Part shown: positions 16,527 through 60,369 of the stretch, one piece after another
Position numbering within the stretch: position 1 is the stretch's first letter
Layout: every line of letters starts with the position of its first letter
The notes under the pieces: generated by a model
Databases searched by the model: none
Seen by the model: the letters and a program-made list of their open reading frames with translations, nothing else
What the model was told of the DNA's origin: nothing
Translations under genes and position numbers: made by a program
Origin: Gemmatimonas sp.
Lineage (GTDB): Bacteria; Gemmatimonadota; Gemmatimonadetes; Gemmatimonadales; Gemmatimonadaceae
Reading direction: 5' to 3'
NCBI GenBank assembly: GCA_965279375.1
Contig: OZ257156.1
Location: 480,001-544,000 of the forward strand
Length of the DNA stretch: 64,000 nucleotides

Positions 16527-16784
16527 ATGCCGACACGCGTCGTTCGCGAAGCCGTCAGCCTCTACGAGGCGAAAACGCACCTCTCCGCGTTGGTCGATCG
16601 CGCCGCGGCGGGCGAGGAGAGCATCCTGATGAAGTCCGGTACGCCGATGGCGATGCTGGTGCCCCTCGACGACACCAAGCGCAAGCGCGTCGCAGGCCAA
16701 GGGCGCGGCCTGTGGCACGTCGCGCCAGACTTCGATGCCCCGTTGCCGGCGGACACCTTGGCCGAGTTCGACAGCGACCAGTGA
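16527..16784 (+). CDS. Phd/YefM-family antitoxin
   Basis: VSLYEAKTHLSALVDRAAAGEE...K.G.P.A.LVP and DFDAPLP motifs, GGAG RBS. Confidence 0.92.
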   Translation: MPTRVVREAVSLYEAKTHLSALVDRAAAGEESILMKSGTPMAMLVPLDDTKRKRVAGQGRGLWHVAPDFDAPLPADTLAEFDSDQ

Positions 16785-17152
16785 GAACGTTGCTGGACAC
16801 GCACGTGCTCATCTGGTGGGACTCGGGAGCGGAGCTGTCTGCGGAAGCCGCTGAAGCGATCCGGGCAGCCACCGACGTCTACGTGAGCGCGGCGTCCGCC
16901 TGGGAAGTCGCCATCAAGCGCACACTCGGCAAGCTGTCCGGTACGCGGACAGTGAGTGACGCGGCCATCGCGTCGGGCTTTACGGAGGTACCCGTACTCA
17001 TGCGACACGCCGAGGCGGTGGAACGCCTGCCATCGCATCACCGCGATCCGTTCGATCGGCTGCTGGTCGCTCAAGCGCTCGTCGAGCGGCTGGTCATCGT
17101 CACGCGGAACCCGGAGATCGTGCAATACAACGTGGACGTCGTGCTGGCCTAG
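16781..17152 (+). CDS. vapC: PIN-domain (VapC-family) toxin
   Basis: LLDTHVLIW, VSAASAWEVAIK and HRDPFDRLLVAQA motifs, GTGA overlap with the antitoxin stop. Confidence 0.92.
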   Translation: MRTLLDTHVLIWWDSGAELSAEAAEAIRAATDVYVSAASAWEVAIKRTLGKLSGTRTVSDAAIASGFTEVPVLMRHAEAVERLPSHHRDPFDRLLVAQALVERLVIVTRNPEIVQYNVDVVLA

Positions 17153-21742: not shown

Positions 21743-21779
21743 AGGGCCGCGTTCCAGTTCGGGAGCGCGGCCCTTTATT
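21743..21779 (+). terminator. Intrinsic terminator hairpin after the amidohydrolase pair
   Basis: AGGGCCGCGTTCC...GGAGCGCGGCCCT stem followed by TTATT, between convergent genes. Confidence 0.75.
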
Positions 21780-22143
21780 CGCGTTTAACCAGCGCCGCGA
21801 GCTTCTTCGGCGCGATCATCAGGTATCCATCGGTCAGCAGCTCGCGCAGCCCCGCCCAATCGGTGTGGGCATCGAGATACACCCCCACCCAACCGCTCGG
21901 GCCCACATAAGGCGGCACGAAGAATCGATCGGGGTTGTCGGCGACCATCAACTGCTGCAGGCCGGCGGGTGCCTTGCACCATAGCGACGTGCGCCCAGCA
22001 CCATGATGGTTGCTGGGCGACGCGAACATCGCGAACAGCTTGTTCTTCACGCGAAATGTCGGTTCACCCCACGCCTCCACCTCGTGCGCCTGAGGCAGTG
22101 CGAGGCACAACTTCCGAACGCGAGCGAGAGGAGACGGCGGCAT
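21775..22143 (-). CDS. MmcQ/YjbR-family protein
   Basis: CLALP.AHE...WGEPTFRV..KLFA, FFVPPYVGPSGWVG and Y.MIAPKKL motifs. Confidence 0.9.
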   Translation of the reverse strand: MPPSPLARVRKLCLALPQAHEVEAWGEPTFRVKNKLFAMFASPSNHHGAGRTSLWCKAPAGLQQLMVADNPDRFFVPPYVGPSGWVGVYLDAHTDWAGLRELLTDGYLMIAPKKLAALVKRE

Positions 22144-22244
22144 GCGTTACGCTACGCCGCGCGAGCGACGCTCGGAAGAAGCCCGTCTCTGGCGCGCGCC
22201 GCCCAACGCAGTACATTCGCCCGCTCCTCTCTCCGCGAGGCTGT

Positions 22245-22655
22245 GTGCACACTTGGCGATTGTGTGTGACCCTGCTGCTGGCCGTCGCGCTCGGATGCGC
22301 GTCGCGAAAGGTGAGCAGCAACGATCGACCCTCCTCGGGTGCGAACCGAGGCTCTGACGTGATCACCGCCGCAGAGCTGTCCGATCCATCGGTGGCTTCG
22401 GGTGACGCGCTCGAGGCCGTCCGTCGGCTGCGTCCGCGGTTCCTTGCGTTCCGCGGCACGCAGAGCATCCGCATGGCCGAGGCCGGGCAAGTACATCTGT
22501 CGATCGATGGCGGTCCGCTGCAGGCGATCAGCAACCTCAGTCGGATGCGCCCGACGGAGCTCAAGGAAATCCGCTATCTGAATTCAAGCGCGGCGGCCCA
22601 GCAGTTCGGGACGACGGCCGGCAGCGGCGGCGTGATTCTCGTGCGGAGCCGGTAG
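22245..22655 (+). CDS. Small lipoprotein consisting of a TonB-receptor plug-like domain
   Basis: GTG start after GAGG, lipobox VALGC, and C-terminal IDG...L..MRPTELKEIRYL....AAQQFG....GGVILVRSR. Confidence 0.72.
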   Translation: MHTWRLCVTLLLAVALGCASRKVSSNDRPSSGANRGSDVITAAELSDPSVASGDALEAVRRLRPRFLAFRGTQSIRMAEAGQVHLSIDGGPLQAISNLSRMRPTELKEIRYLNSSAAAQQFGTTAGSGGVILVRSR

Positions 22656-22670
22656 CAGCACACGCTGCTC

Positions 22671-22699
22671 TTGATGACCGTTCCGTCCCGCCGTACAAT
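22671..22699 (+). promoter_or_regulatory. Sigma70-type promoter for susCD
   Basis: TTGATG (22671-22676), 17-bp spacer, TACAAT (22694-22699). Confidence 0.68.
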
Positions 22700-23005
22700 G
22701 GACGCGCGCGGGACAAGATCGTATTGTCCCCCGCGAAATGCCTTTCGGAGGCTGTGAAAGCGGATCACCCCTGACAGCTTGCGCTTGCGGCTGCCGGTCC
22801 GGCGGTCCTGAAGTGCCCAGAAATCCACGTGAACCCGGTTCGTCCCGCCCTCCGGTCATTGTGTCGCGAGTTCATCCGCGCGACGCGGTTTCCCACTGGG
22901 TCGTTGCCTGTTTCGAGGCAGAAGTCAGCCTCGGTTACACCGCGTGATGCTGATGGCGTCCCGCGCGGCGGTGAGCACGGATCAACCTTTCTGGGGGGCG
23001 CACAC

Positions 23006-26000
23006 ATGGACGGCATCTGGAGATGGAGGCGCGGCGCGAGCCGTAGCCCCATCGTCGCGGCGTTCGCGACGATGTTATCGGCGGCAACGCTCGCCGCGCA
23101 GCCGGCAACCCTCACGGGACGCGTCACGACGTCGGCGGCGGCGCCTCTGGGCGATACCCGGGTCGTCATCGTCGGCACGACGCTCGGGGCGATGACCAAC
23201 GCGGACGGACGCTACACCATTCGCGGCGTGCCCGCCGGCACCGTGGACGTGCGCGTGACTCGACTCGGCTATCAGGAGGTCAAGCAGCCCGCCACGCTGA
23301 CGGCGGGTGGCACGACTACCCTGAACTTCACGATGACCGCGAGCGCCGTGCAGCTCAACGAAATGGTCGTCACCGCCACCGGCGTGCAGCGACGGGCCGA
23401 GATCGGTAATTCGGTGTCGATCATCTCGGTCGCCGACCGCGTCAAGGAAACGCCGATCCACAGCATGGGCGACCTGCTGACCGCCAAGGCGCCCGGCCTC
23501 TCGGTCCTGCAGGGCGGCATGAGCGGCACCGGCGCGCAGATTCGCATTCGCGGGCTCAATTCCGTGAGTCGATCCAATGCACCGATCTTCATCGTCGATG
23601 GCGTGCGCATGGACGGCGGCGCCGGCGGGTTCGGCGTCGGTGGCTCGAACTCGAGCCGGTTGAACGACCTCACGCCGGAGGAGATCGAAGACATCGCGGT
23701 CATCAAGGGGCCGTCGGCATCGACGCTCTACGGCACCGATGCCGCGAACGGCGTGATCATCATCAAGACCAAGGGCGGACGGCGCGGCACCACGCGCTTT
23801 GCCTACACCGCTGAAAAGGGTCGCATCACGGACCCCAACGCGTACTGGGACACCTACGCCATCTGGGGGCACACGCCGGCCAATCCCACCGTGCAGACGC
23901 GGTGCATCCTGACCACGATCGCGTCGGGTGCGTGCATCAAGGACAGCGTCACGACGGCGAACATCATGCGCAACAGCGAGCTGACGCCCATCGGCACGGG
24001 AGACCGCAGCCTCTACGGCATGCAGATCTCGGGCGGCAACGACGCCGTTCGCTTTTTCGTGAGCGGCAACTACGAAAACGAACTCGGCCCCGTGCGCATG
24101 CCCGACATCGACGCGGCCTATCTCGCCACAAACAAGGTGGCAGTGCGCGATGAGTGGCTGAATCCCGAGGCGCTGCGCCGCACCTCCGTGCGCGCCAACC
24201 TGAATGCGTCGCTCAACCCGAAGATGGATCTCACCGTCAGTTCGTCGTTCATCAAGTCGAATCAGCGGCTGCCGCAGGTCGACAACAACGTCAACAGCTT
24301 CTACTACAACGCCTACACCAATCCCGGCTTCACGAGACGGAACGTCTGCACGGCTCCCTGCGCGGGACTCGCGTACTCTGGCATCGGCAATCTCGGCCAG
24401 CCGCTCAACGGGTGGGCGCAGTACACGCCCGGCGACATCATGCAGTTCACCACGCTGGAAGACATCCAGCGCTTGCTCGGAAGCGTGACGACCAGCTGGC
24501 GTCCATTCAGCTGGATGGAGAACAACGCCACCACCGGCGTCGACGTGGCCGTGTTCGACAACTTCCGGCTCTGCCGCCTGAACGAGTGCCCTAACTTCGG
24601 AACGCAGCGGCAAGGCTCGATCTCGGACACGCACGGATCGCAGCGCATCTTCACCGGCAACGTGCGGAGCTCGGCCACGTGGAAGCCGCTCGACTGGCTC
24701 AGCGTGAAGGGCACGGTGGGGGCGGACTACATCAACAACCAGTCGGAGAACAGCGTCGCCAGCAGCACGCAGCTCTCTCCCGGTGGACAGACGGTCGGCT
24801 CCGGTGCGGTGAAGAACGCGTCGAATCAGTCGCCCACCGCCACCAAGACGCTGGGCTACTTCGCGCAGGCCCAGTTCAGCATCGACGATCGGCTCTTCAT
24901 CACCGGCGCGGTGCGTAGCGACCAGAACACGGCATTCGGCACGCAGTACAAGGGCGTCAGCTACCCGTCCGCCCAGGTCGCGTGGGCGATCTCGGAAGAG
25001 AGCTTCTTCCCGAAGTTCGACGTGCTCAAGGAGTTCCGTCTGCGTTCGGCGTACGGCTCCTCCGGCGTGCAACCGGGCGCCACCTCCGCCCTGCGCCAGT
25101 TTGCGGCATCGACCGTCAGCCTGGTGACCGACCAGACCGCACTCCTCGCGTCGGCCATCGGCAACCCGAAGCTCAAGCCGGAAACCACGACCGAGTTCGA
25201 AGCCGGCTTCGATTCGCGCTGGCTCGGCGATCGCGTGAACTTCGAGTACACGTACTATCGCAAGCAGTCCAAGGACGCGCTGATCAACCAGAACATCGCC
25301 ACGTCGTCGGGTGCCCCGGTGGGCAGCGTGCTGCGCAACCTCGGCGCCGTGCGCAACTCGGGTGTGGAAGTCTCGCTCAAGGCACAGCTGCTCGACCTGC
25401 AGCAGCTCGGCGAGCTCGGATGGGACGTCACCATCGGCGGGTCGCGCAACAAGAACAAGCTCGTCACGCTCGGACTTGATGACAACGGCAAGCCGATTCC
25501 CACGATTGGCACGGTGACGCGCCAGCAGCAGGGATACCCGCTCAACAGCTTCTTCCTGCAGAAGTACACGTACGCCGATGCGGACAAGAATGGTCTCATC
25601 TCGGTGAACGAAGTCACCCTTGGCGACACCGGCGTGTACGTGGGCTCCGCGCTGCCGTCCAATCTGTTCACGGTGCAGAGCGGCTTCGACTTCCTGAAGA
25701 AGAAGCTGCGCATCATTGCGTCGCTCGACTATCGCGGTGGCTTCACGCTCTTCAACAGCGGCGCCAATTTCCTCTGCGGCAATACGGACGCGTGCTATGC
25801 CAAGTCCAATCCGTCGGCCTCTCTCTTCGAGCAGGCACGGCAGGTGGCTGCGAACTTCACGAACCCCAAGACGCAGTACGGCTACTACGAGAAGGGAGAC
25901 GCGTGGCGATTGCGCGAAGTGTCTGCCGTGGTACGCCTGCCGCGCGGGTGGGCGTCGCGCCTGCGTGCTTCGGATGCAGACTTCCAGTTCGGTGCGCGCA

Positions 26001-26131
26001 ACCTGAAGGTGTGGACCAAGTACACCGGGCAGGATCCGGAAGCGAACTACAGTCAGGGCGATGTACAGACCGATTTCCTGACGACGGCCCCGCGCAAGTT
26101 CTACACGGCGCGCCTCAATCTCCGCTTCTGA
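23006..26131 (+). CDS. SusC/RagA-family TonB-dependent outer membrane transporter
   Basis: CarboxypepD_reg-like N-domain, LNEMVVTA TonB box, IRIRG, PIFIVDG, IEDIAVIKGPSASTLYG..AANGVIII.TK, GNPKLKPE, C-terminal Phe. Confidence 0.95.
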   Translation: MDGIWRWRRGASRSPIVAAFATMLSAATLAAQPATLTGRVTTSAAAPLGDTRVVIVGTTLGAMTNADGRYTIRGVPAGTVDVRVTRLGYQEVKQPATLTAGGTTTLNFTMTASAVQLNEMVVTATGVQRRAEIGNSVSIISVADRVKETPIHSMGDLLTAKAPGLSVLQGGMSGTGAQIRIRGLNSVSRSNAPIFIVDGVRMDGGAGGFGVGGSNSSRLNDLTPEEIEDIAVIKGPSASTLYGTDAANGVIIIKTKGGRRGTTRFAYTAEKGRITDPNAYWDTYAIWGHTPANPTVQTRCILTTIASGACIKDSVTTANIMRNSELTPIGTGDRSLYGMQISGGNDAVRFFVSGNYENELGPVRMPDIDAAYLATNKVAVRDEWLNPEALRRTSVRANLNASLNPKMDLTVSSSFIKSNQRLPQVDNNVNSFYYNAYTNPGFTRRNVCTAPCAGLAYSGIGNLGQPLNGWAQYTPGDIMQFTTLEDIQRLLGSVTTSWRPFSWMENNATTGVDVAVFDNFRLCRLNECPNFGTQRQGSISDTHGSQRIFTGNVRSSATWKPLDWLSVKGTVGADYINNQSENSVASSTQLSPGGQTVGSGAVKNASNQSPTATKTLGYFAQAQFSIDDRLFITGAVRSDQNTAFGTQYKGVSYPSAQVAWAISEESFFPKFDVLKEFRLRSAYGSSGVQPGATSALRQFAASTVSLVTDQTALLASAIGNPKLKPETTTEFEAGFDSRWLGDRVNFEYTYYRKQSKDALINQNIATSSGAPVGSVLRNLGAVRNSGVEVSLKAQLLDLQQLGELGWDVTIGGSRNKNKLVTLGLDDNGKPIPTIGTVTRQQQGYPLNSFFLQKYTYADADKNGLISVNEVTLGDTGVYVGSALPSNLFTVQSGFDFLKKKLRIIASLDYRGGFTLFNSGANFLCGNTDACYAKSNPSASLFEQARQVAANFTNPKTQYGYYEKGDAWRLREVSAVVRLPRGWASRLRASDADFQFGARNLKVWTKYTGQDPEANYSQGDVQTDFLTTAPRKFYTARLNLRF

Positions 26132-26149
26132 TCCCACGAGGACGATATC

Positions 26150-27526
26150 ATGACTGCATCACCGTATCGTATCCGCGTCGGATTGGCGCTCAGCGCACTG
26201 ACGCTTGCGGCCTCCTGTTCCAGCGTTCGCGACAGCTTGCTCGAGCCACAGCAACCTGGCGTTATCGGTCCGGAAGCCACCGAGTCACCCACCGCGGCCG
26301 ACGCCCTGCGCAAGGGAGCGCTGAGTCGCTTGCGCGCGGCCACCGTGGGTGGTGAAAGCATCTGGCTGCTCGCCGGGCTCCTGGCCGACGAATGGAAGTC
26401 CGGCGACACCTTCTCGCAGCGCAACGAGACGGATCAGCGCGTTGTGCAGACGAACAACGCCAATGTCTCGTCGATGTATGTGACGCAACACCGTGCCCGT
26501 GGCGCCGCCTACGACGCGCTCGCCGCACTGCGGAAATTCGCTCCGGACACCGTCTCCAAGCAGGCGCAGATGTACTGGGTCATGGGCGTCGCCGAGCTCG
26601 GATTGGCCGAGAACTTCTGCAGTGGCGTGCCCTATGGGTTCCTGGTGGATGGCATTCCCACCTACACCGATCCGCTCACCACGGCACAGGGATTCGCGCT
26701 GGCGCTCACGCACCTCGACTCCGCCCTCACGCTGGCCGCAGCCAGTGACACCTTCACCGTTGCCGTGCGCAACGCGATCCAGATTTCACGCGCACGCGCA
26801 CTGGTGAACATCGGTGGTGCCGCGAACTTCGCGCTCGCGGCCACTGCAGCCGCCAGCGTGCCTACCAGCTTCCAGTACCTGCAGACGTTCTCGCTGACCA
26901 CCACGGACAACGCCGTCTGGTCACTCAACAACAGCCAGAAGCGGTGGGTGGTGGGCGACAGCTTCGATACGGGTGGGCTCATCCAGAACGCGATTCCGTT
27001 CGCCTCCTCCAACGATCCGCGCGTGCCCAAGACGGGCACCACGCTCAACAGCACGTTGCTGCGTGCGTTCGACACGAGCACGTGGTTCGTGCAGCAGACT
27101 ATCTACGGCCGCACCGATCCCGTACCGCTGGCCACGGGCATCGATGCGCGCCTCATCGAAGCCGAAGCGCGTCTGCAGGCGCAGGACATTCCGGGCATGA
27201 TGACGATCCTGAATGCGTTGCGTACGACGTCACAGCGCATCGGCGCGTATCAGGTGCCGGTGATGGCCGCGCTTCCTGCGCCCACCTCGCAGGCGGCGGC
27301 AGTCGACCTGTATTTCCGCGAGAAGGCGTTCTGGTCGTTCAGCCGTGGACAGCGTCTGAGCGACATGCGTCGGCTCATTCGGCAGTACGGACGCACGCAA
27401 GCGCAGGTGTTCCCCTCGGGGCAGTTCTTCAAAGGAGGCACGTACGGGACCGACGTGAACTTCCCCGTCACGACCGACGAGACGCCCAATCCGAAGTGGA
27501 AGGGATGCATCGATCGTAACGCCTGA
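26150..27526 (+). CDS. SusD/RagB-like surface lipoprotein
   Basis: Lipobox AASC, LIEAEARL, E...W....GQRLSDMRR and FP...DE..NP motifs, directly after susC. Confidence 0.9.
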   Translation: MTASPYRIRVGLALSALTLAASCSSVRDSLLEPQQPGVIGPEATESPTAADALRKGALSRLRAATVGGESIWLLAGLLADEWKSGDTFSQRNETDQRVVQTNNANVSSMYVTQHRARGAAYDALAALRKFAPDTVSKQAQMYWVMGVAELGLAENFCSGVPYGFLVDGIPTYTDPLTTAQGFALALTHLDSALTLAAASDTFTVAVRNAIQISRARALVNIGGAANFALAATAAASVPTSFQYLQTFSLTTTDNAVWSLNNSQKRWVVGDSFDTGGLIQNAIPFASSNDPRVPKTGTTLNSTLLRAFDTSTWFVQQTIYGRTDPVPLATGIDARLIEAEARLQAQDIPGMMTILNALRTTSQRIGAYQVPVMAALPAPTSQAAAVDLYFREKAFWSFSRGQRLSDMRRLIRQYGRTQAQVFPSGQFFKGGTYGTDVNFPVTTDETPNPKWKGCIDRNA

Positions 27527-39642: not shown

Positions 39643-42333
39643 TCAGCGCACCCCGAACCAAAAGCTGACCTTCGCCACCAGAATGTTGTCGCCGGCGGCA
39701 TGCGTGGCATCAAGCAGGTCGCGCGGAGAAATCAGCAGCCCCGTGCCTGTCGCATCCTGGCGGCTCTGCTGCCAGACGAGAAAGGCAGTGCTCCCTGGCA
39801 GCCACTCCCAGCGCAGCACGAGGTTGGAGCGGAATGACAGACGGTTGAAGTCGAGCGCGGGGATATTGAACCGGTCCGCACCGTCGGTCACGGCCGTGAC
39901 ACCGTTGGCCTGCTGTTGCGCGGTGGTTCCGGTTCCAGGGGCGCCGAACACCCGCAGTACCTTGCTACGAGGCGCCGACAGCTCGCCAAACTGGTAGAAA
40001 TTCCCGCTGGCGGCGAACGGCTCTGCGTACCCCTCGACCGTGAAATTCGGAGTGAACGCATAGTTCAGTCGAAAGCGCGCCGACAACGTGCTGCGCTCGA
40101 TGAACGAAAAGACGTAGCGCTGCTTGAACGTCGCCGCGCTTCCTCCACCGCGCGTGAGCACGTACTGCCGCGGGTCCACCGCACGCGAATACGTCGGATC
40201 GACGGACGCCTGCCAGCGCGACGCGGGACGCACGGTCAACCCAGTCGTCGCGCTCCAGTTCCATCCGCCAAAGTCGTCGCGATAGTACGTGAACCGCGAG
40301 GACCACGTCGTCGGCACATTCGCTCGGCTCGTCAGACCGGCCGTGAACTGCTGCCCACTCGGCGTCGCAATCAGCGGTCCGCCACGTGTGAGATCATCGC
40401 TCTGCGATCCGACGTAGCGCGTCGCGCCAGCACTCACGCGCCAGAAGTTGTGTAGCGTCGCCGAAAAATTCTCCGAGAAGCGCAGGTACTGGCGAATGCC
40501 GCCGAAATTCCACCCCGCCTGCGTGGATGTGCCGAAGTTGAAGAAGCGCACATACTTGTTGGGCTTCGTATCGCGCAACTGCACGTCGGCGTTGAAATCG
40601 ATGTCGTCGGCGCTGCGCATCTGCCCAGCGTCGTTGATCTCGAAGCCCGGCGAGCGCGTCGAGAGCTGGATGCCGCCAAGCGAAAACCGTCCAGCGTTCT
40701 TGTCGAGCCGCAGCGACGTACTCATGCCGCGCAGCGTCGTGCGCAGTGAGTCGAAGCGAATGTGCGTCTGATCGGGGCGCTGGAAGAAGTGCGCACTGTT
40801 GCGCTGCAGGCGCGCGATGGCCGCCGGATCCCCCTCCACCGAGCTTCCGCCCAGCCAGCCGGTGATCTCGTACATCCCCTGCTTGTAGCGCAGCTTCCAA
40901 TCCACCCCACCGGCCACCGCGCTGGACGGCAGCAGCTGCTGCAATGCACCACGTGCGTCGAGCGAGTGCTGCACGCCGGTCAGCGAGAGCCCCACGTTGG
41001 ACTGCTGCTTGCCGAACTCCTGCTGCAAGCGCAGAACGGCGAACTGATTGGGAGGCTCGACAGCGGAACGTCCGACGGAGTCCGAGGCCAGCGTGTAGGT
41101 ACGCGCAAACTCGCGTGGCGTGATGGCAGCGAGCGCACCGATCGAGAGCCCGCGCGAAAACCGTCCCGTGACCTTGGCCGCTGTGGTGATAGTGGTGTTG
41201 GTAGGCGCATCCACGAAGTCGCCACGCGCCGAGCCATGCGGTGAGGCGCCAATGCGACGACTGTAGAACCAGGTGGGACGCCCGATGAAGCTCTGGCCGC
41301 GCCCCGTCAGCAGCTCGTTCCCCTCGATGAAGAACGGTCGCCGCTCCTCGAAGACATTCTCGAATGCGGTGAGGTTGACGACGGCAGGATCGGCTTCGAC
41401 TTGCCCGAAGTCTGGATTGATCGTGGCGTCGAGCGTGAGGTTTGGCCCTAACCCAACCTTGAGATCGCCACCGATGCGGCCGTGATAGCGATCGCTGAAC
41501 GGGTTGGCAGGATTCACATTCGCGCGCTGCGTCACGTCCGTCGCCAGGTACGGGAGCAGCTCCATGCGACGCGCCGGTGGAATCCCTTCGATGCCGTCGA
41601 GTCGGCCGAACCTCGACGAGAATCCTGCGGCCGACACGGGAATCATTGCCCACTGCAAGCGTTCGGCGATGTCCGCCACGTTGCGCGTGAGCTGCATCCC
41701 CCACGTATGCATCGGCGCCGCATTGAAGCGCAGCTGTGAGAATGGAATGCGCATCTCTGCGGTCCATCCTTCCGCGTCCACGCGCGCGCGCGCGCTCCAC
41801 ACGGGATCGAACTGCAGTTCCCGGCCACTGTCTTCGCTGTCCTGCGAGTGATACGCGTCGCCGCGCACACCGCCTGAGGACACCGTGAAGCTGTACGCCG
41901 TCCGTCGGTCGAGATACGTGTCGAGCGAGATGGTGATCGTCTCCGCGTCGCTGTCGCCGTCGCGACGAGTCACCGATGTGCGAATGGCGCTCGGATCGGG
42001 GCGATACATGCGCGCCCCCACATACACCGCGTCGTCATCGTACAGGATGCGGACCGAAGTACGCACACTCGGCGTGGCGCCTTCGATCGGGATCTTCTGC
42101 ACGAAGTCTTCGATCGGCGTGGCCTTGGACCACGCCGCGTCATCAAGCACGCCGTCGATGCGCGGCGCACTGTTCGTGATGTGCGCGGCGCGTGCATGCT
42201 TTCCCGGAGCCTGCGCGGTCACGACGCGCGTCGTCGCGACCGAGAGCGCGGCCAGCAGTACAGCGGCGAGGTGTCCGGGCGGAGTCGACCGGAGCCGCGA
42301 CTTGGGCGCGAACGGAAGCCTGAGCGAGAGCAT
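39643..42333 (-). CDS. CBM9-like plus DUF5916 outer-membrane protein
   Basis: PRIDGVLDDAAW, WTAEMRIPFSQLRF, TINPDFGQVEAD, E.RPFF.EG and FYSRRIG motifs. Start ATG 42333. Confidence 0.88.
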   Translation of the reverse strand: MLSLRLPFAPKSRLRSTPPGHLAAVLLAALSVATTRVVTAQAPGKHARAAHITNSAPRIDGVLDDAAWSKATPIEDFVQKIPIEGATPSVRTSVRILYDDDAVYVGARMYRPDPSAIRTSVTRRDGDSDAETITISLDTYLDRRTAYSFTVSSGGVRGDAYHSQDSEDSGRELQFDPVWSARARVDAEGWTAEMRIPFSQLRFNAAPMHTWGMQLTRNVADIAERLQWAMIPVSAAGFSSRFGRLDGIEGIPPARRMELLPYLATDVTQRANVNPANPFSDRYHGRIGGDLKVGLGPNLTLDATINPDFGQVEADPAVVNLTAFENVFEERRPFFIEGNELLTGRGQSFIGRPTWFYSRRIGASPHGSARGDFVDAPTNTTITTAAKVTGRFSRGLSIGALAAITPREFARTYTLASDSVGRSAVEPPNQFAVLRLQQEFGKQQSNVGLSLTGVQHSLDARGALQQLLPSSAVAGGVDWKLRYKQGMYEITGWLGGSSVEGDPAAIARLQRNSAHFFQRPDQTHIRFDSLRTTLRGMSTSLRLDKNAGRFSLGGIQLSTRSPGFEINDAGQMRSADDIDFNADVQLRDTKPNKYVRFFNFGTSTQAGWNFGGIRQYLRFSENFSATLHNFWRVSAGATRYVGSQSDDLTRGGPLIATPSGQQFTAGLTSRANVPTTWSSRFTYYRDDFGGWNWSATTGLTVRPASRWQASVDPTYSRAVDPRQYVLTRGGGSAATFKQRYVFSFIERSTLSARFRLNYAFTPNFTVEGYAEPFAASGNFYQFGELSAPRSKVLRVFGAPGTGTTAQQQANGVTAVTDGADRFNIPALDFNRLSFRSNLVLRWEWLPGSTAFLVWQQSRQDATGTGLLISPRDLLDATHAAGDNILVAKVSFWFGVR

Positions 42334-58029: not shown

Positions 58030-60369
58030 TCACCCGCTGGTGCCGAACTGGCGGGTGAACTTGACGAACAGCGTCCGCTGCTGCGGGCGCACCCAATCGA
58101 AGAACCCGCGCGCCTCGCGCCCGTCGTTGAGCACCACGAACAGCCCCGTGCCGGCGGTGTTGAGCCAGCCGAAGCGCACGTTCGCCGACCAGATGCTCGC
58201 CTGATTGTTGTACTGCGTCAGCGTCTGGACGAACACCCGCGGCGAGAAGAAGTAGTTGAGCCGCACTGCCTGCAACGAGCTCCGGAAATTCCCCTGCGGG
58301 AGCCGCACGTCGTTGTAGTCAGCGGTGAACGATCCGGAGAACGTCGCGCCACGACGCAGTGTGATCGTGCCACTGCCACCGCTGCGATTTCCCGTCCAGA
58401 ACTGACCGAAGTCGAAGCGACCAGTCGCCGACAGCGCTTCGCTCGGATCGGTGGTGTAGTCGAAGCCGAACGTACCCCAGTCGTACGAACCAACCGGAAT
58501 CACGACGCCCGGTGCGATCGTGAACGGCTGCTGCAGTCCTTCGTGCGAGATGTTGTACTCGGGACCGAACTTGGTGCTGTTGGCGAGTTCGATTTCCGTG
58601 AGGTCGAGGTGCCAGTAGCCGGTCTGATAGAAGTTGTCCTTCAGGCCCTCAAAACGGCGATAGCTGATGTGCGGATTCCATTGGCGAAACCACGCCCACT
58701 CCGGCTTTCGCACGAGGCGCATCACGGTGGCATCGTACGCGCGGTAGCCACCCGGCCGGCTCATGAAGCCAACTTCGGGATTGAAGTCGTCGCCGACCTG
58801 CGCGATGCGCGCGTTGTGGTTCCACACGTTCGTCTGATAGGCTACGCGTGCACTCATCGCATTGTCGTCGCCCTCACGTCCGGGCGTCGTCGTGCGCGCC
58901 GCCCAGAGATCGCTGGTCCATCGCTGACCAAATCCGAGGCGGCTGTCGATGGCGAAGGTGCGGTTGACATCGCCAGCGTCCTTGGTGGACATGCGCTGCA
59001 CGACCATCGCGCCCAGCCGTGAACGCGCGCCCAGCTCACGCGTGACACGTCCCACGCTGAACGACTGGCCTTCGGAGTTCTCGTCCGGGGCATCGGTGAC
59101 CATCTGCAGCAAGCCAACAGTGGTTCCGCCGACGCGCCCACTGAGTCGTCCGCCACCGAGAATCGGCTGTGCCGTGCCGTTGCTGGCGATGCCGATGCGT
59201 CGCGTGAAGAAGAGGTCCACGGCCTGCGGCGTTCCAGCGGAGAAGGTGCCCGCGTTTTCCAGAAAGAACGGGCGCTTCTCCGGAAAGAAGACCGGGAAGC
59301 GCGTCAGGTTCACGCGTTGATCGTCGACTTCCACCTGCGCGAAGTCGGTGTTGTACGTGAGGTCGAGCGTGAGCGCTGGCGTCACGCCGTACTTGATCTC
59401 GCCACCCACTTCGGTGGGGTACGTGGACTTGGCGATCTTGTTGGGCCACGTGCGCTGCGCCGACGTGAGCACATAGGGCGTGACCGTCTGGATACGACGC
59501 GTGGGGACGTTCAGTCCGGCGAGCTGTCCGGCCAGCGAGAGACGATAAAGGTTGAACTGTCGCGGAATGAACGCCCAATACAGCTCTTCGTTCTTTCGGC
59601 GAATCAAGCGCGTGACGTTGAGCCCCCACGTCTGCTCGGTGCCGCCCGCCTGATAGCGAAGCGTGGAGTAGGGAATGCGGAACTCTGCCGTCCAGCCCAG
59701 TGAATCGATGTGCGTCGCGACTTTCCAGCTCGCATCCCAATTCACGTTGAAGCCGCCCATCGCTCCGGCCTGCATGCGATTCTGTCCCGCAACGGAAGCG
59801 CCACCACCTTCGCCTTCACGGATCACCTGCCCATCGTACTCCACGCCGGCGGGTGTGGTCGCAAAAACGAATCCATTCTGTCGATCATGATACGTGTCGA
59901 AGATGAGCGCGATGTGATCGCTGTTTGCCAGCTGCACGTCGCGAATCTGCTCGCCCGGCACGATGAGCTGCGGCTCGCGGTCGAACATGCGCGCGCCGAT
60001 GTACAGATAGAGTCCGTCGGTGGCAAGGCGAACCTCCGTGCGCTCCGACGCGGGCACGCCTTCGTTCATCTCGCGCTGCACGAAGTCCGTGATGGGCGTG
60101 CCGGTGCGCCACAGCTCCTCGTCGAGTCGACCGTCGATTGTGGGCGTCGTGGTGATCTTGATCGCCCGGGCGATGGGCATCGGCTTGGCGCGCGCGGCGC
60201 GAGCGAACGAATCGGCCGCCGCGGCATCGAGGCGCGTCGGAGAGGCCACTCGGGCTGGCTGCGCCGACAGATGCGCCGGAGCAAGCACGACCCCTGCGAA
60301 CAGCATCAGCGTGCACCCGGTCACTGTGCGCACCATGGCACGAGCTGCAGTACGAAACACGGTCATCAT
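58030..60369 (-). CDS. CBM9-like plus DUF5916 outer-membrane protein (second paralog)
   Basis: PTIDGRLDE..W, WTAEFRIP, TYNTDFAQVEVD, FPEKRPFFLEN and FFTRRIG motifs. Confidence 0.88.
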   Translation of the reverse strand: MMTVFRTAARAMVRTVTGCTLMLFAGVVLAPAHLSAQPARVASPTRLDAAAADSFARAARAKPMPIARAIKITTTPTIDGRLDEELWRTGTPITDFVQREMNEGVPASERTEVRLATDGLYLYIGARMFDREPQLIVPGEQIRDVQLANSDHIALIFDTYHDRQNGFVFATTPAGVEYDGQVIREGEGGGASVAGQNRMQAGAMGGFNVNWDASWKVATHIDSLGWTAEFRIPYSTLRYQAGGTEQTWGLNVTRLIRRKNEELYWAFIPRQFNLYRLSLAGQLAGLNVPTRRIQTVTPYVLTSAQRTWPNKIAKSTYPTEVGGEIKYGVTPALTLDLTYNTDFAQVEVDDQRVNLTRFPVFFPEKRPFFLENAGTFSAGTPQAVDLFFTRRIGIASNGTAQPILGGGRLSGRVGGTTVGLLQMVTDAPDENSEGQSFSVGRVTRELGARSRLGAMVVQRMSTKDAGDVNRTFAIDSRLGFGQRWTSDLWAARTTTPGREGDDNAMSARVAYQTNVWNHNARIAQVGDDFNPEVGFMSRPGGYRAYDATVMRLVRKPEWAWFRQWNPHISYRRFEGLKDNFYQTGYWHLDLTEIELANSTKFGPEYNISHEGLQQPFTIAPGVVIPVGSYDWGTFGFDYTTDPSEALSATGRFDFGQFWTGNRSGGSGTITLRRGATFSGSFTADYNDVRLPQGNFRSSLQAVRLNYFFSPRVFVQTLTQYNNQASIWSANVRFGWLNTAGTGLFVVLNDGREARGFFDWVRPQQRTLFVKFTRQFGTSG

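Follow-up and report, generated by a model that had tools for sequence, protein, structure and literature searches.

An intact lipoprotein gene upstream of susC and susD

In TonB-dependent transport, the extent to which the plug moves out of its barrel, and what keeps the membrane closed meanwhile, is a long-standing question. The locus analyzed here approaches it from another side: what is a plug for when it has no barrel of its own? In a stretch of 64,000 nucleotides from Gemmatimonas sp. (contig OZ257156.1; hereafter the window), a gene at 22245-22655(+) with a GTG start and a TAG stop encodes a protein of 136 aa that we call the mini-plug. An initial annotation had described a lipoprotein of ~136 aa with a VALGC motif, and the reading frame was indeed intact, with VALG-C18 ending a lipoprotein signal peptide (22245-22298(+)). 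The signal peptide is followed by a flexible linker of residues 19-36 (22299-22352(+); pLDDT <50, few acidic residues) and a trimmed plug domain of residues 37-136 (22353-22652(+)), delimited by the structure model, fold searches, and profile alignment. A GAGG motif resembling a ribosome-binding site is read from the sequence 4 nt before the GTG (22237-22240(+)). The stop codon is crossed by a contig from another study, which covers 22556-22790, showing 8 differences plus a single gap outside the gene; a sequencing run that spans the entire window may itself be where this DNA came from. Close homologues are many and aligned over 96-100% at about equal length.

Downstream lies susC (23006-26131(+)), encoding a complete SusC/RagA-type transporter with its own plug; the product scored 390 bits on TIGR04056 (cut-off, 368) and matched Pfam CarboxypepD_reg, Plug, and barrel families. 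The next gene (26150-27526(+)) encodes a lipoprotein that we label SusD-like from its lipobox and its position behind susC; Pfam SusD was not matched at E ≤ 0.1. The placement "directly upstream of susCD" held for position, the mini-plug stop and susC being 350 bp apart, but the two genes are separated by a sigma70-like site, TTGATG-17-TACAAT (22671-22699(+)). One such site was found in the gap, compared with 0.1 ± 0.4 in shuffled sequences, and visual inspection showed a similar site ahead of the orthologous susC at locus L014; susCD therefore probably has its own promoter. On the other side, a divergent YjbR-family gene (21775-22143(-); PF04237, E = 2e-15) was absent from the recurrent neighbor families of mini-plugs and showed no sign of belonging to the system. 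Elsewhere in the window, a small gene pair (16527-17152(+)) resembles what we take to be a Phd-type antitoxin with a PIN-domain toxin.

A trimmed plug fold without barrel or TonB box

The window mini-plug had no match in Pfam or, at E ≤ 0.1, in NCBIfam. Pfam Plug (PF07715) was matched by 3 of 61 members of the mini-plug family (best E, 5e-5), and one paralogue, G000:378969, reached the Pfam gathering score; the suggested check against the Plug profile gave no match for the window protein and weak matches for few members of its family. By BLASTP, the mini-plug and the neighboring SusC shared 29% identity over 41 residues (E = 4e-4), and all motifs that the initial annotation had quoted as shared were present in both. 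Profile-profile comparison of the family with the 24 SusC plugs of the genome gave a probability of 96.8% (global) and 97.2% (local), with only 17% identity to the neighboring SusC plug in the global profile alignment. These comparisons place the likeness to the SusC plug above chance yet remote.

The AlphaFold2 model of the mini-plug had a pLDDT of 79, mostly 85-96 over residues 41-136. TonB-dependent transporters made up all 50 of the Foldseek matches listed, none at E ≤ 0.001, and 26 of 34 matches listed by VIA-align, of which the best was FyuA (Z 6.5, rmsd 3.3 Å, 92 aligned). FyuA was also the best hit of a sequence search of the PDB (E = 0.11), and a viral fold library gave no match at E ≤ 0.001. 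The fold and profile scores are individually middling and mutually consistent, and the proposal that the body of the protein parallels the SusC plug is borne out by the ~97% profile-profile probability together with the plug fold found in the predicted model.

In the profile alignment, 13 SusC residues are missing between P64 and R65, in the stretch that leads from the second helix to the IRG motif, a deletion that may explain the Pfam miss. We take the deleted residues to be the beta2-beta3 hairpin, in the N-terminal half of the plug. In BtuB, the N-terminal plug half (residues 23-73) is described as unfolding first under TonB force (PMC5413942). The lipobox and linker of the mini-plug stand where SusC has its N-terminal extension and TonB box.

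Conservation was assessed in 216 relatives of 120-165 aa, filtered from 241 fetched proteins. The lipobox pattern occurred in 185 of them and C18 was 97% conserved; with a signal peptide and a lipobox Cys, the mini-plug is classed as a lipoprotein, its lipidation being predicted. No TonB-box-like motif was found in the linker of any of the 185 lipobox-bearing members. The C-terminus lay ≤4 residues from the last strand in 198 of the 216 relatives, so the clean stop where a barrel would begin, already remarked on in the initial annotation, is an end common to the family. Conserved residues of the plug domain were E44, R63-P64, R70-G71, D88-G89, E108, R110, A117, G122, and G128, and the near-invariant positions included C18, E44, R63, P64, R70, G71, L98, E108, R110, A117, and G122. 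R70-G71 (22452-22457(+); 93% and 92% conserved) aligned to R182-G183 of the SusC IRG motif. On our assumed mapping of mini-plug positions onto FhuA numbering, R70 and SusC R182 presumably occupy the position of the FhuA barrel-lock arginine R93. On this mapping the first barrel-lock arginine would be kept as R70, and the second position would be E108 (92%), where SusC itself varies. In FhuA, the barrel-lock arginines are R93 and R133, and R93 forms salt bridges with barrel glutamates (PMC11658791). Taken together, sequence and model indicate that 22245-22655(+) encodes an intact lipoprotein with the plug fold of TonB-dependent transporters, lacking both barrel and TonB box.

A short-protein family under purifying selection

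At E ≤ 0.001, 1,056 protein clusters (50% identity) matched the mini-plug. Among the best 150, 146 were ≤200 aa, and the 4 longer proteins each contained two domain copies and no barrel. A search among longer proteins gave, as weak evidence, 1 match of 8,000 scored candidates, an amidohydrolase-fused, non-barrel protein. dN/dS was 0.13-0.16 in two close pairs and 0.29-0.59 between the window gene and nine relatives, below 1 in all comparisons made, which points to a gene under purifying selection. The mini-plug adjoins susC and is homologous to the susC plug, as a recent truncation or pseudogene fragment of that gene would be. Its 17% identity to the neighboring plug, its own lipobox, the shortness of homologues throughout the 1,056 clusters rather than full-length receptors, and the dN/dS values refute that origin.

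The family was found in at least 73 of 151 Gemmatimonadota genomes, and matching records with a named phylum were from Gemmatimonadota. Named database entries for the homologues read "hypothetical protein," and the cluster names of 10 distant relatives were uninformative. A tree of 26 close relatives was mostly unresolved; the window protein grouped with P0003/P0004, and a sister relation to the L014 protein was not supported.

This genome (G000) carries six mini-plug copies, one of them fused to GH115. A mini-plug paralogue at G000:C1:1583069-1583506(-) has an ordinary signal peptide and no lipobox Cys and lies two genes behind a DUF5916 gene. Mini-plug domains are often paired, as two genes or within one chain, at 9 of 39 loci (L015, L022, L023, L026, L028, L032, L033, L043, and L045) and at 9 of 60 further loci.

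The mini-plug family is probably tied to SusC-type transporters in general

Among the 151 genomes of the phylum, SusC was present in 73 of 73 mini-plug-positive genomes, and the mini-plug family was found in none of the 32 SusC-less genomes, counts that include related, hence non-independent, genomes and were made with a profile favoring close relatives. Within a single family of genomes, mini-plugs occurred in 33 of 61 SusC-positive vs 0 of 13 SusC-negative members; a control family, also exported and from Gemmatimonadota, turned up in 8 of the same 13. No mini-plug match was obtained for 46 of 119 SusC-positive genomes, with 27 candidates scored per genome.

Gene positions gave a similar picture. 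In one set of 60 loci and another of 39, 13 and 9 loci, respectively, had a mini-plug ≤2 kb from susC or susD (22 of 99 in total, the two sets overlapping by at least one locus and the SusD profile being made from genes behind the susC genes of this genome); at a few of these loci the nearest match was a longer stand-alone plug, with a mini-plug also within 2 kb. The baseline in this genome was 92 of 4,187 genes (2.2%), or 13 of 260 lipobox-like genes (5%). SusC and SusD were the top two neighbor families of mini-plugs, at 16 and 15 of 90 loci. Of the 22 linked loci, 12 have the mini-plug behind susD in the same orientation and 4 have it upstream and co-directional; a further 5 are convergent and 1 is divergent. 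Recurrence at unrelated loci in four orientations suggests repeated recruitment. Co-occurrence and linkage support a functional tie of the family to SusC-type transporters.

A dedicated role for the adjacent susCD pair was not supported. Nine of the 10 closest relatives (50-61% identity) are at a housekeeping locus, behind an ABC peptide permease and usually MazG; at the ABC-permease/MazG locus of this genome, the gap is only 50 bp. EF-G and ferredoxin-like genes were other recurring neighbors. One relative, at L014, has the same gene arrangement, a mini-plug followed by susC and susD, with SusC 80% and SusD 84% identical, but none of 29 loci of more distant relatives of this susC had a mini-plug within 1.5 kb. 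Neither the mini-plug nor susC was found, under strict thresholds, in four same-genus genomes, a tally that is the only one to count the unpublished genome G257. We infer that the mini-plug serves the SusC-type transporters of the cell in general rather than the adjacent one specifically; the suggested SusC-related role stands in that broader form, whereas dedication to the adjacent susCD does not.

A candidate stopper for SusC barrels

The initial annotation had proposed modeling the protein with SusC. When the mini-plug was modeled with the neighboring SusC barrel from which the plug had been deleted, the score was 0.79, compared with 0.00 for the best of three controls; 116 of 157 solved complexes reached the mark applied, as did 2 of 215 mismatched pairs, figures that hold only roughly for our own alignments. 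Contacts agreed at ≥92% between runs, partner pLDDT was ≥79, and contacting residues were found all round the barrel. The interface included R70/G71 and SusC E726, E730, and E732 (glutamates invariant in 28 of 28) as well as six conserved polar residues; a pairing of R70 with a glutamate was absent from the 25 listed contacts. Interface positions were not more conserved than the rest of the protein, which includes the core (mean top-residue frequency, 0.53 vs 0.60), and the interface named none of E44, R63, E108, and R110, the charged residues with the highest conservation. The mini-plug thus fits the lumen of the plug-deleted barrel in the model, but solved transporters look like this complex, and the score, which may echo such structures memorized by the predictor, shows likeness and not binding.

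In Bacteroidota, acidic residues after the lipoprotein Cys act as an export signal. Two or more acidic residues in the ten after the Cys were present in 14 of 202 mini-plugs vs 14 of 22 SusD-like proteins of this genome. If the Bacteroidota rule applies in this phylum, the low acidic content suggests that the lipid anchor of the mini-plug lies in the inner leaflet of the outer membrane and that the protein faces the periplasm.

Our best guess, which we hold with considerable doubt, is that the mini-plug is a passive, periplasm-facing stopper, not pullable by TonB, for SusC barrels whose own plug is out. The lipid-anchored protein, on a tether of ~20 residues, would enter the lumen of a SusC barrel lacking a plug in place, either during assembly or after TonB had pulled out the native plug, and would dock through its retained wall-contact motifs. 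Lacking a TonB box, it could not be pulled and would seal the membrane as a placeholder until the native plug returned. Entry into the SusC lumen is the least certain step. The fuller version, in which a pool of lipid-anchored spare plugs enters SusC barrels in trans and seals them at assembly or over-extraction, or switches them off, is a rather unlikely one. Complete plug unfolding has been described to let bacitracin in (PMC5413942), the barrel LptD folds around the lipoprotein LptE (PMC13067283), and FhuA has been studied with its cork and barrel made as separate chains (Braun et al. 2003, cited in PMC2615193).

The fold, the trimming, the co-occurrence with SusC, the linkage, the complex model, and the low acidic content count for a stopper. 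Against it, every TonB-dependent barrel found in this genome has its own plug, so that a lumen would be free only transiently; the modeled interface is not extra conserved and leaves out E44, R63, E108, and R110; most loci (77 of 99) lie away from susCD, and no match was obtained in 46 of the 119 genomes with SusC; tandem double domains in one chain cannot share one barrel; and ~20 further barrel-less plug genes here show the fold reused without a barrel. If the stopper proposal is true, a free plug with wall-contact motifs and no TonB handle makes the question of plug exit directly testable, SusCD systems outside Bacteroidota have an undescribed component, and TonB-dependent transporters have a natural plug-exchange or quality-control step.

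Other roles for a barrel-less plug

A stable partner for the mini-plug would be a barrel with no plug. PF00593 had 52 matches in this genome; two had no Pfam plug match, and both showed plug-like segments by eye, so that no plug-less TonB-dependent barrel was found among them. A permanent plug in trans thus lacks a partner among these matches. A heuristic screen for other plug-less barrels was too crude to exclude any. The initial annotation had also pointed to two DUF5916 proteins, encoded at 39643-42333(-) and 58030-60336(-), 17 and 35 kb from the mini-plug. The model of the latter combined a CBM9-like domain with ~24 long strands and no TonB-type plug, its top matches being LptD, and the uncharacterized DUF5916 family occurred in 141 of 151 genomes of the phylum, with ~12 homologues in this one; a permanent trans plug for such large barrels, in the manner of LptE in LptD, would suit these features. 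However, only 2 of 98 loci had DUF5916 near a mini-plug, mini-plugs occurred in 3 of 10 genomes without DUF5916, and of the 32 genomes with neither SusC nor mini-plug, 28 had DUF5916. A conserved internal segment of ~60 residues may, judging from the model, already fill the DUF5916 lumen. DUF5916 was rejected as a partner on linkage and co-occurrence, and a permanent plug for any plug-less large barrel appears very improbable.

A better case can be made for an independent periplasmic module, in which a plug fold split off from susC in the distant past and came to serve as a scaffold or binding domain without a barrel, its closeness to susCD reflecting origin and genome history. The ABC-permease/MazG setting of 9 of 10 closest relatives, the EF-G and ferredoxin-like neighbors, the tandem and fused forms, the conservation of E44/R63/E108/R110 outside the modeled interface, and 19 genes in this genome that encode an N-terminal extension (NTE) plus plug without a barrel all fit this account. 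We nevertheless consider it unlikely in view of the absence of the mini-plug from all 32 SusC-negative genomes, the susCD linkage at unrelated loci in four orientations, and the retention of R70 at 93%. Somewhat less likely still is an accessory acting outside the lumen, a chaperone or regulator directed at the periplasmic face of SusC, its N-terminal extension, an extruded plug segment, or the barrel-less NTE-plug proteins. The co-occurrence and linkage data apply equally to such an accessory, no empty barrel is needed, and mini-plugs are fused to CarboxypepD_reg-containing proteins in one genus; the fit of its surface to the barrel wall, if real, would be left unexplained.

A surface-exposed, substrate-binding lipoprotein in the role of SusE/F would agree with the predicted lipidation, with the commonest position, immediately after susD and co-directional with it (12 of the 22 linked loci), and with the one copy fused to GH115 in a xylan-type locus. 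Yet the mini-plugs lack the acidic post-Cys stretch of the SusD-like proteins of this genome, the apical segments of the SusC plug are shortened or missing, and the GH115 fusion was found in this genome only. SusE/F proteins would also be expected to show constant co-location with susCD and a surface-export signal; co-location was seen at 22 of 99 loci and acidic residues were few, by a rule taken from Bacteroidota that may not be that of this phylum. Such a role is hard to credit, and we give slightly less weight again to a decoy titrating TonB. The mini-plug is plug-derived and probably periplasmic, as a decoy would be, but a TonB-box-like motif was found in 0 of 185 members, which speaks against a decoy in the usual sense as first suggested, and none of the six copies is near the six TonB_C genes of the genome.

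Other barrel-less plug genes of the genome

Even under a rival reading, a soil-common phylum encodes many barrel-less plug proteins. This genome has about 28 barrel-less plug genes, called hypothetical in databases. Nineteen of them (e.g., G000 C1:198030-199658, 1290747-1291523, and 4131620-4132417) encode secreted proteins with a C-terminal plug and no barrel, mostly with CarboxypepD_reg-like domains, the plug bearing a conserved Cys-Gly and Trp. The gene at 4131620 sits between a susCD pair and a TonB_C gene. The 258-aa gene at G000:C1:1290747-1291523 has an apparently identical copy 25 kb away at 1315762-1316538, and a third, closely similar one lies at 1282675; recent duplication or an assembly repeat would account for them.

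Fused forms were also seen. At G000:C1:1567600-1571037(+) (L051:12601-16037), a lipoprotein mini-plug is joined in frame to GH115 by a Pro/Ala/Ser linker, in a susCD locus with GH3, two GH10, and GH43 genes. Among 944 candidates, only this protein had the fusion; it was set aside as a conserved architecture, being known from a single genome, and may be a recent read-through. A pectinesterase with a C-terminal full SusC-type plug is encoded directly upstream of a susC at G000:C1:1826617-1828122(+) (L053:2618-4123). In one genus, CarboxypepD_reg and an unfamiliar domain are fused to one or two mini-plugs (L076, L079, L082, L098, L115, and P0177); the unfamiliar domain is DUF5686-like by a weak Atlas score of 0.87, a lead only. 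This NTE-X-mini-plug fusion was confined to the one genus, with a mini-plug in 1 of 12 plus-strand genes read from 30 NTE-X loci. The unfused CarboxypepD_reg/DUF5686-like protein family occurred in 145 of 251 genomes.

Comparison with known systems

In a literature search covering few subscription journals, stand-alone plug lipoproteins were not the subject of any paper; a preprint mentions operons in which YfiM-Griddle genes accompany Plug domains (bioRxiv 10.1101/2025.01.14.632903). BamP of Flavobacterium johnsoniae is an accessory protein of the periplasm with a loop that enters a barrel, but it ends in a three-helix domain and is described as restricted to Flavobacteriaceae (PMC12611786), so it was rejected as a plug-like precedent. 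Gemmatimonadota also have longer stand-alone plug lipoproteins (L030, L040, L041, and L043), which are likewise barrel-less and often lie beside susCD and mini-plugs. Unlike the mini-plug, these proteins of 150-186 aa pass the Pfam Plug cut-off; they are likewise uncharacterized.

With the plugs of SusC/RagA proteins (PF07715; TIGR04056; PDB 8aa4, 6sml, and 5fq8) and FyuA (4epa), the mini-plug shares a common fold over ~90 residues, and it keeps the RG, IDG, and A-x-x-x-F/Y-G motifs of the SusC plug and its last strand. It differs in being a separate lipoprotein without barrel, TonB box, or N-terminal extension, in the 13-residue deletion before the RG motif, and in falling below Pfam detection. 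At positions 108/110, the mini-plug has E and R, whereas SusC has mostly a small polar residue or R, then E. On these features, with no 22-stranded barrel, TonB box, or TIGR04056-level score, it is not a TonB-dependent transporter. New here are the shortened plug architecture, the confinement of the family to SusC-positive genomes among those searched, and the findings that speak against dedication to the neighbor; the family is probably an undescribed helper of SusC-type importers.

Split FhuA also has its plug as a separate chain (Braun et al. 2003, cited in PMC2615193); it was engineered, with a plug-less barrel supplied, whereas no natural plug-less partner was found for the mini-plug. LptE, a small lipoprotein of the outer membrane that a large barrel folds around (PMC13067283), provides a working analogy. 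Unlike SusC, LptD lacks a plug of its own, the mini-plug family is multi-copy and patchy, and no LptE chain was among the fold matches listed for the mini-plug model. Membership in the LptE family is not implied; should the stopper proposal hold, however, LptE is the protein that the mini-plug would most resemble in how it works.
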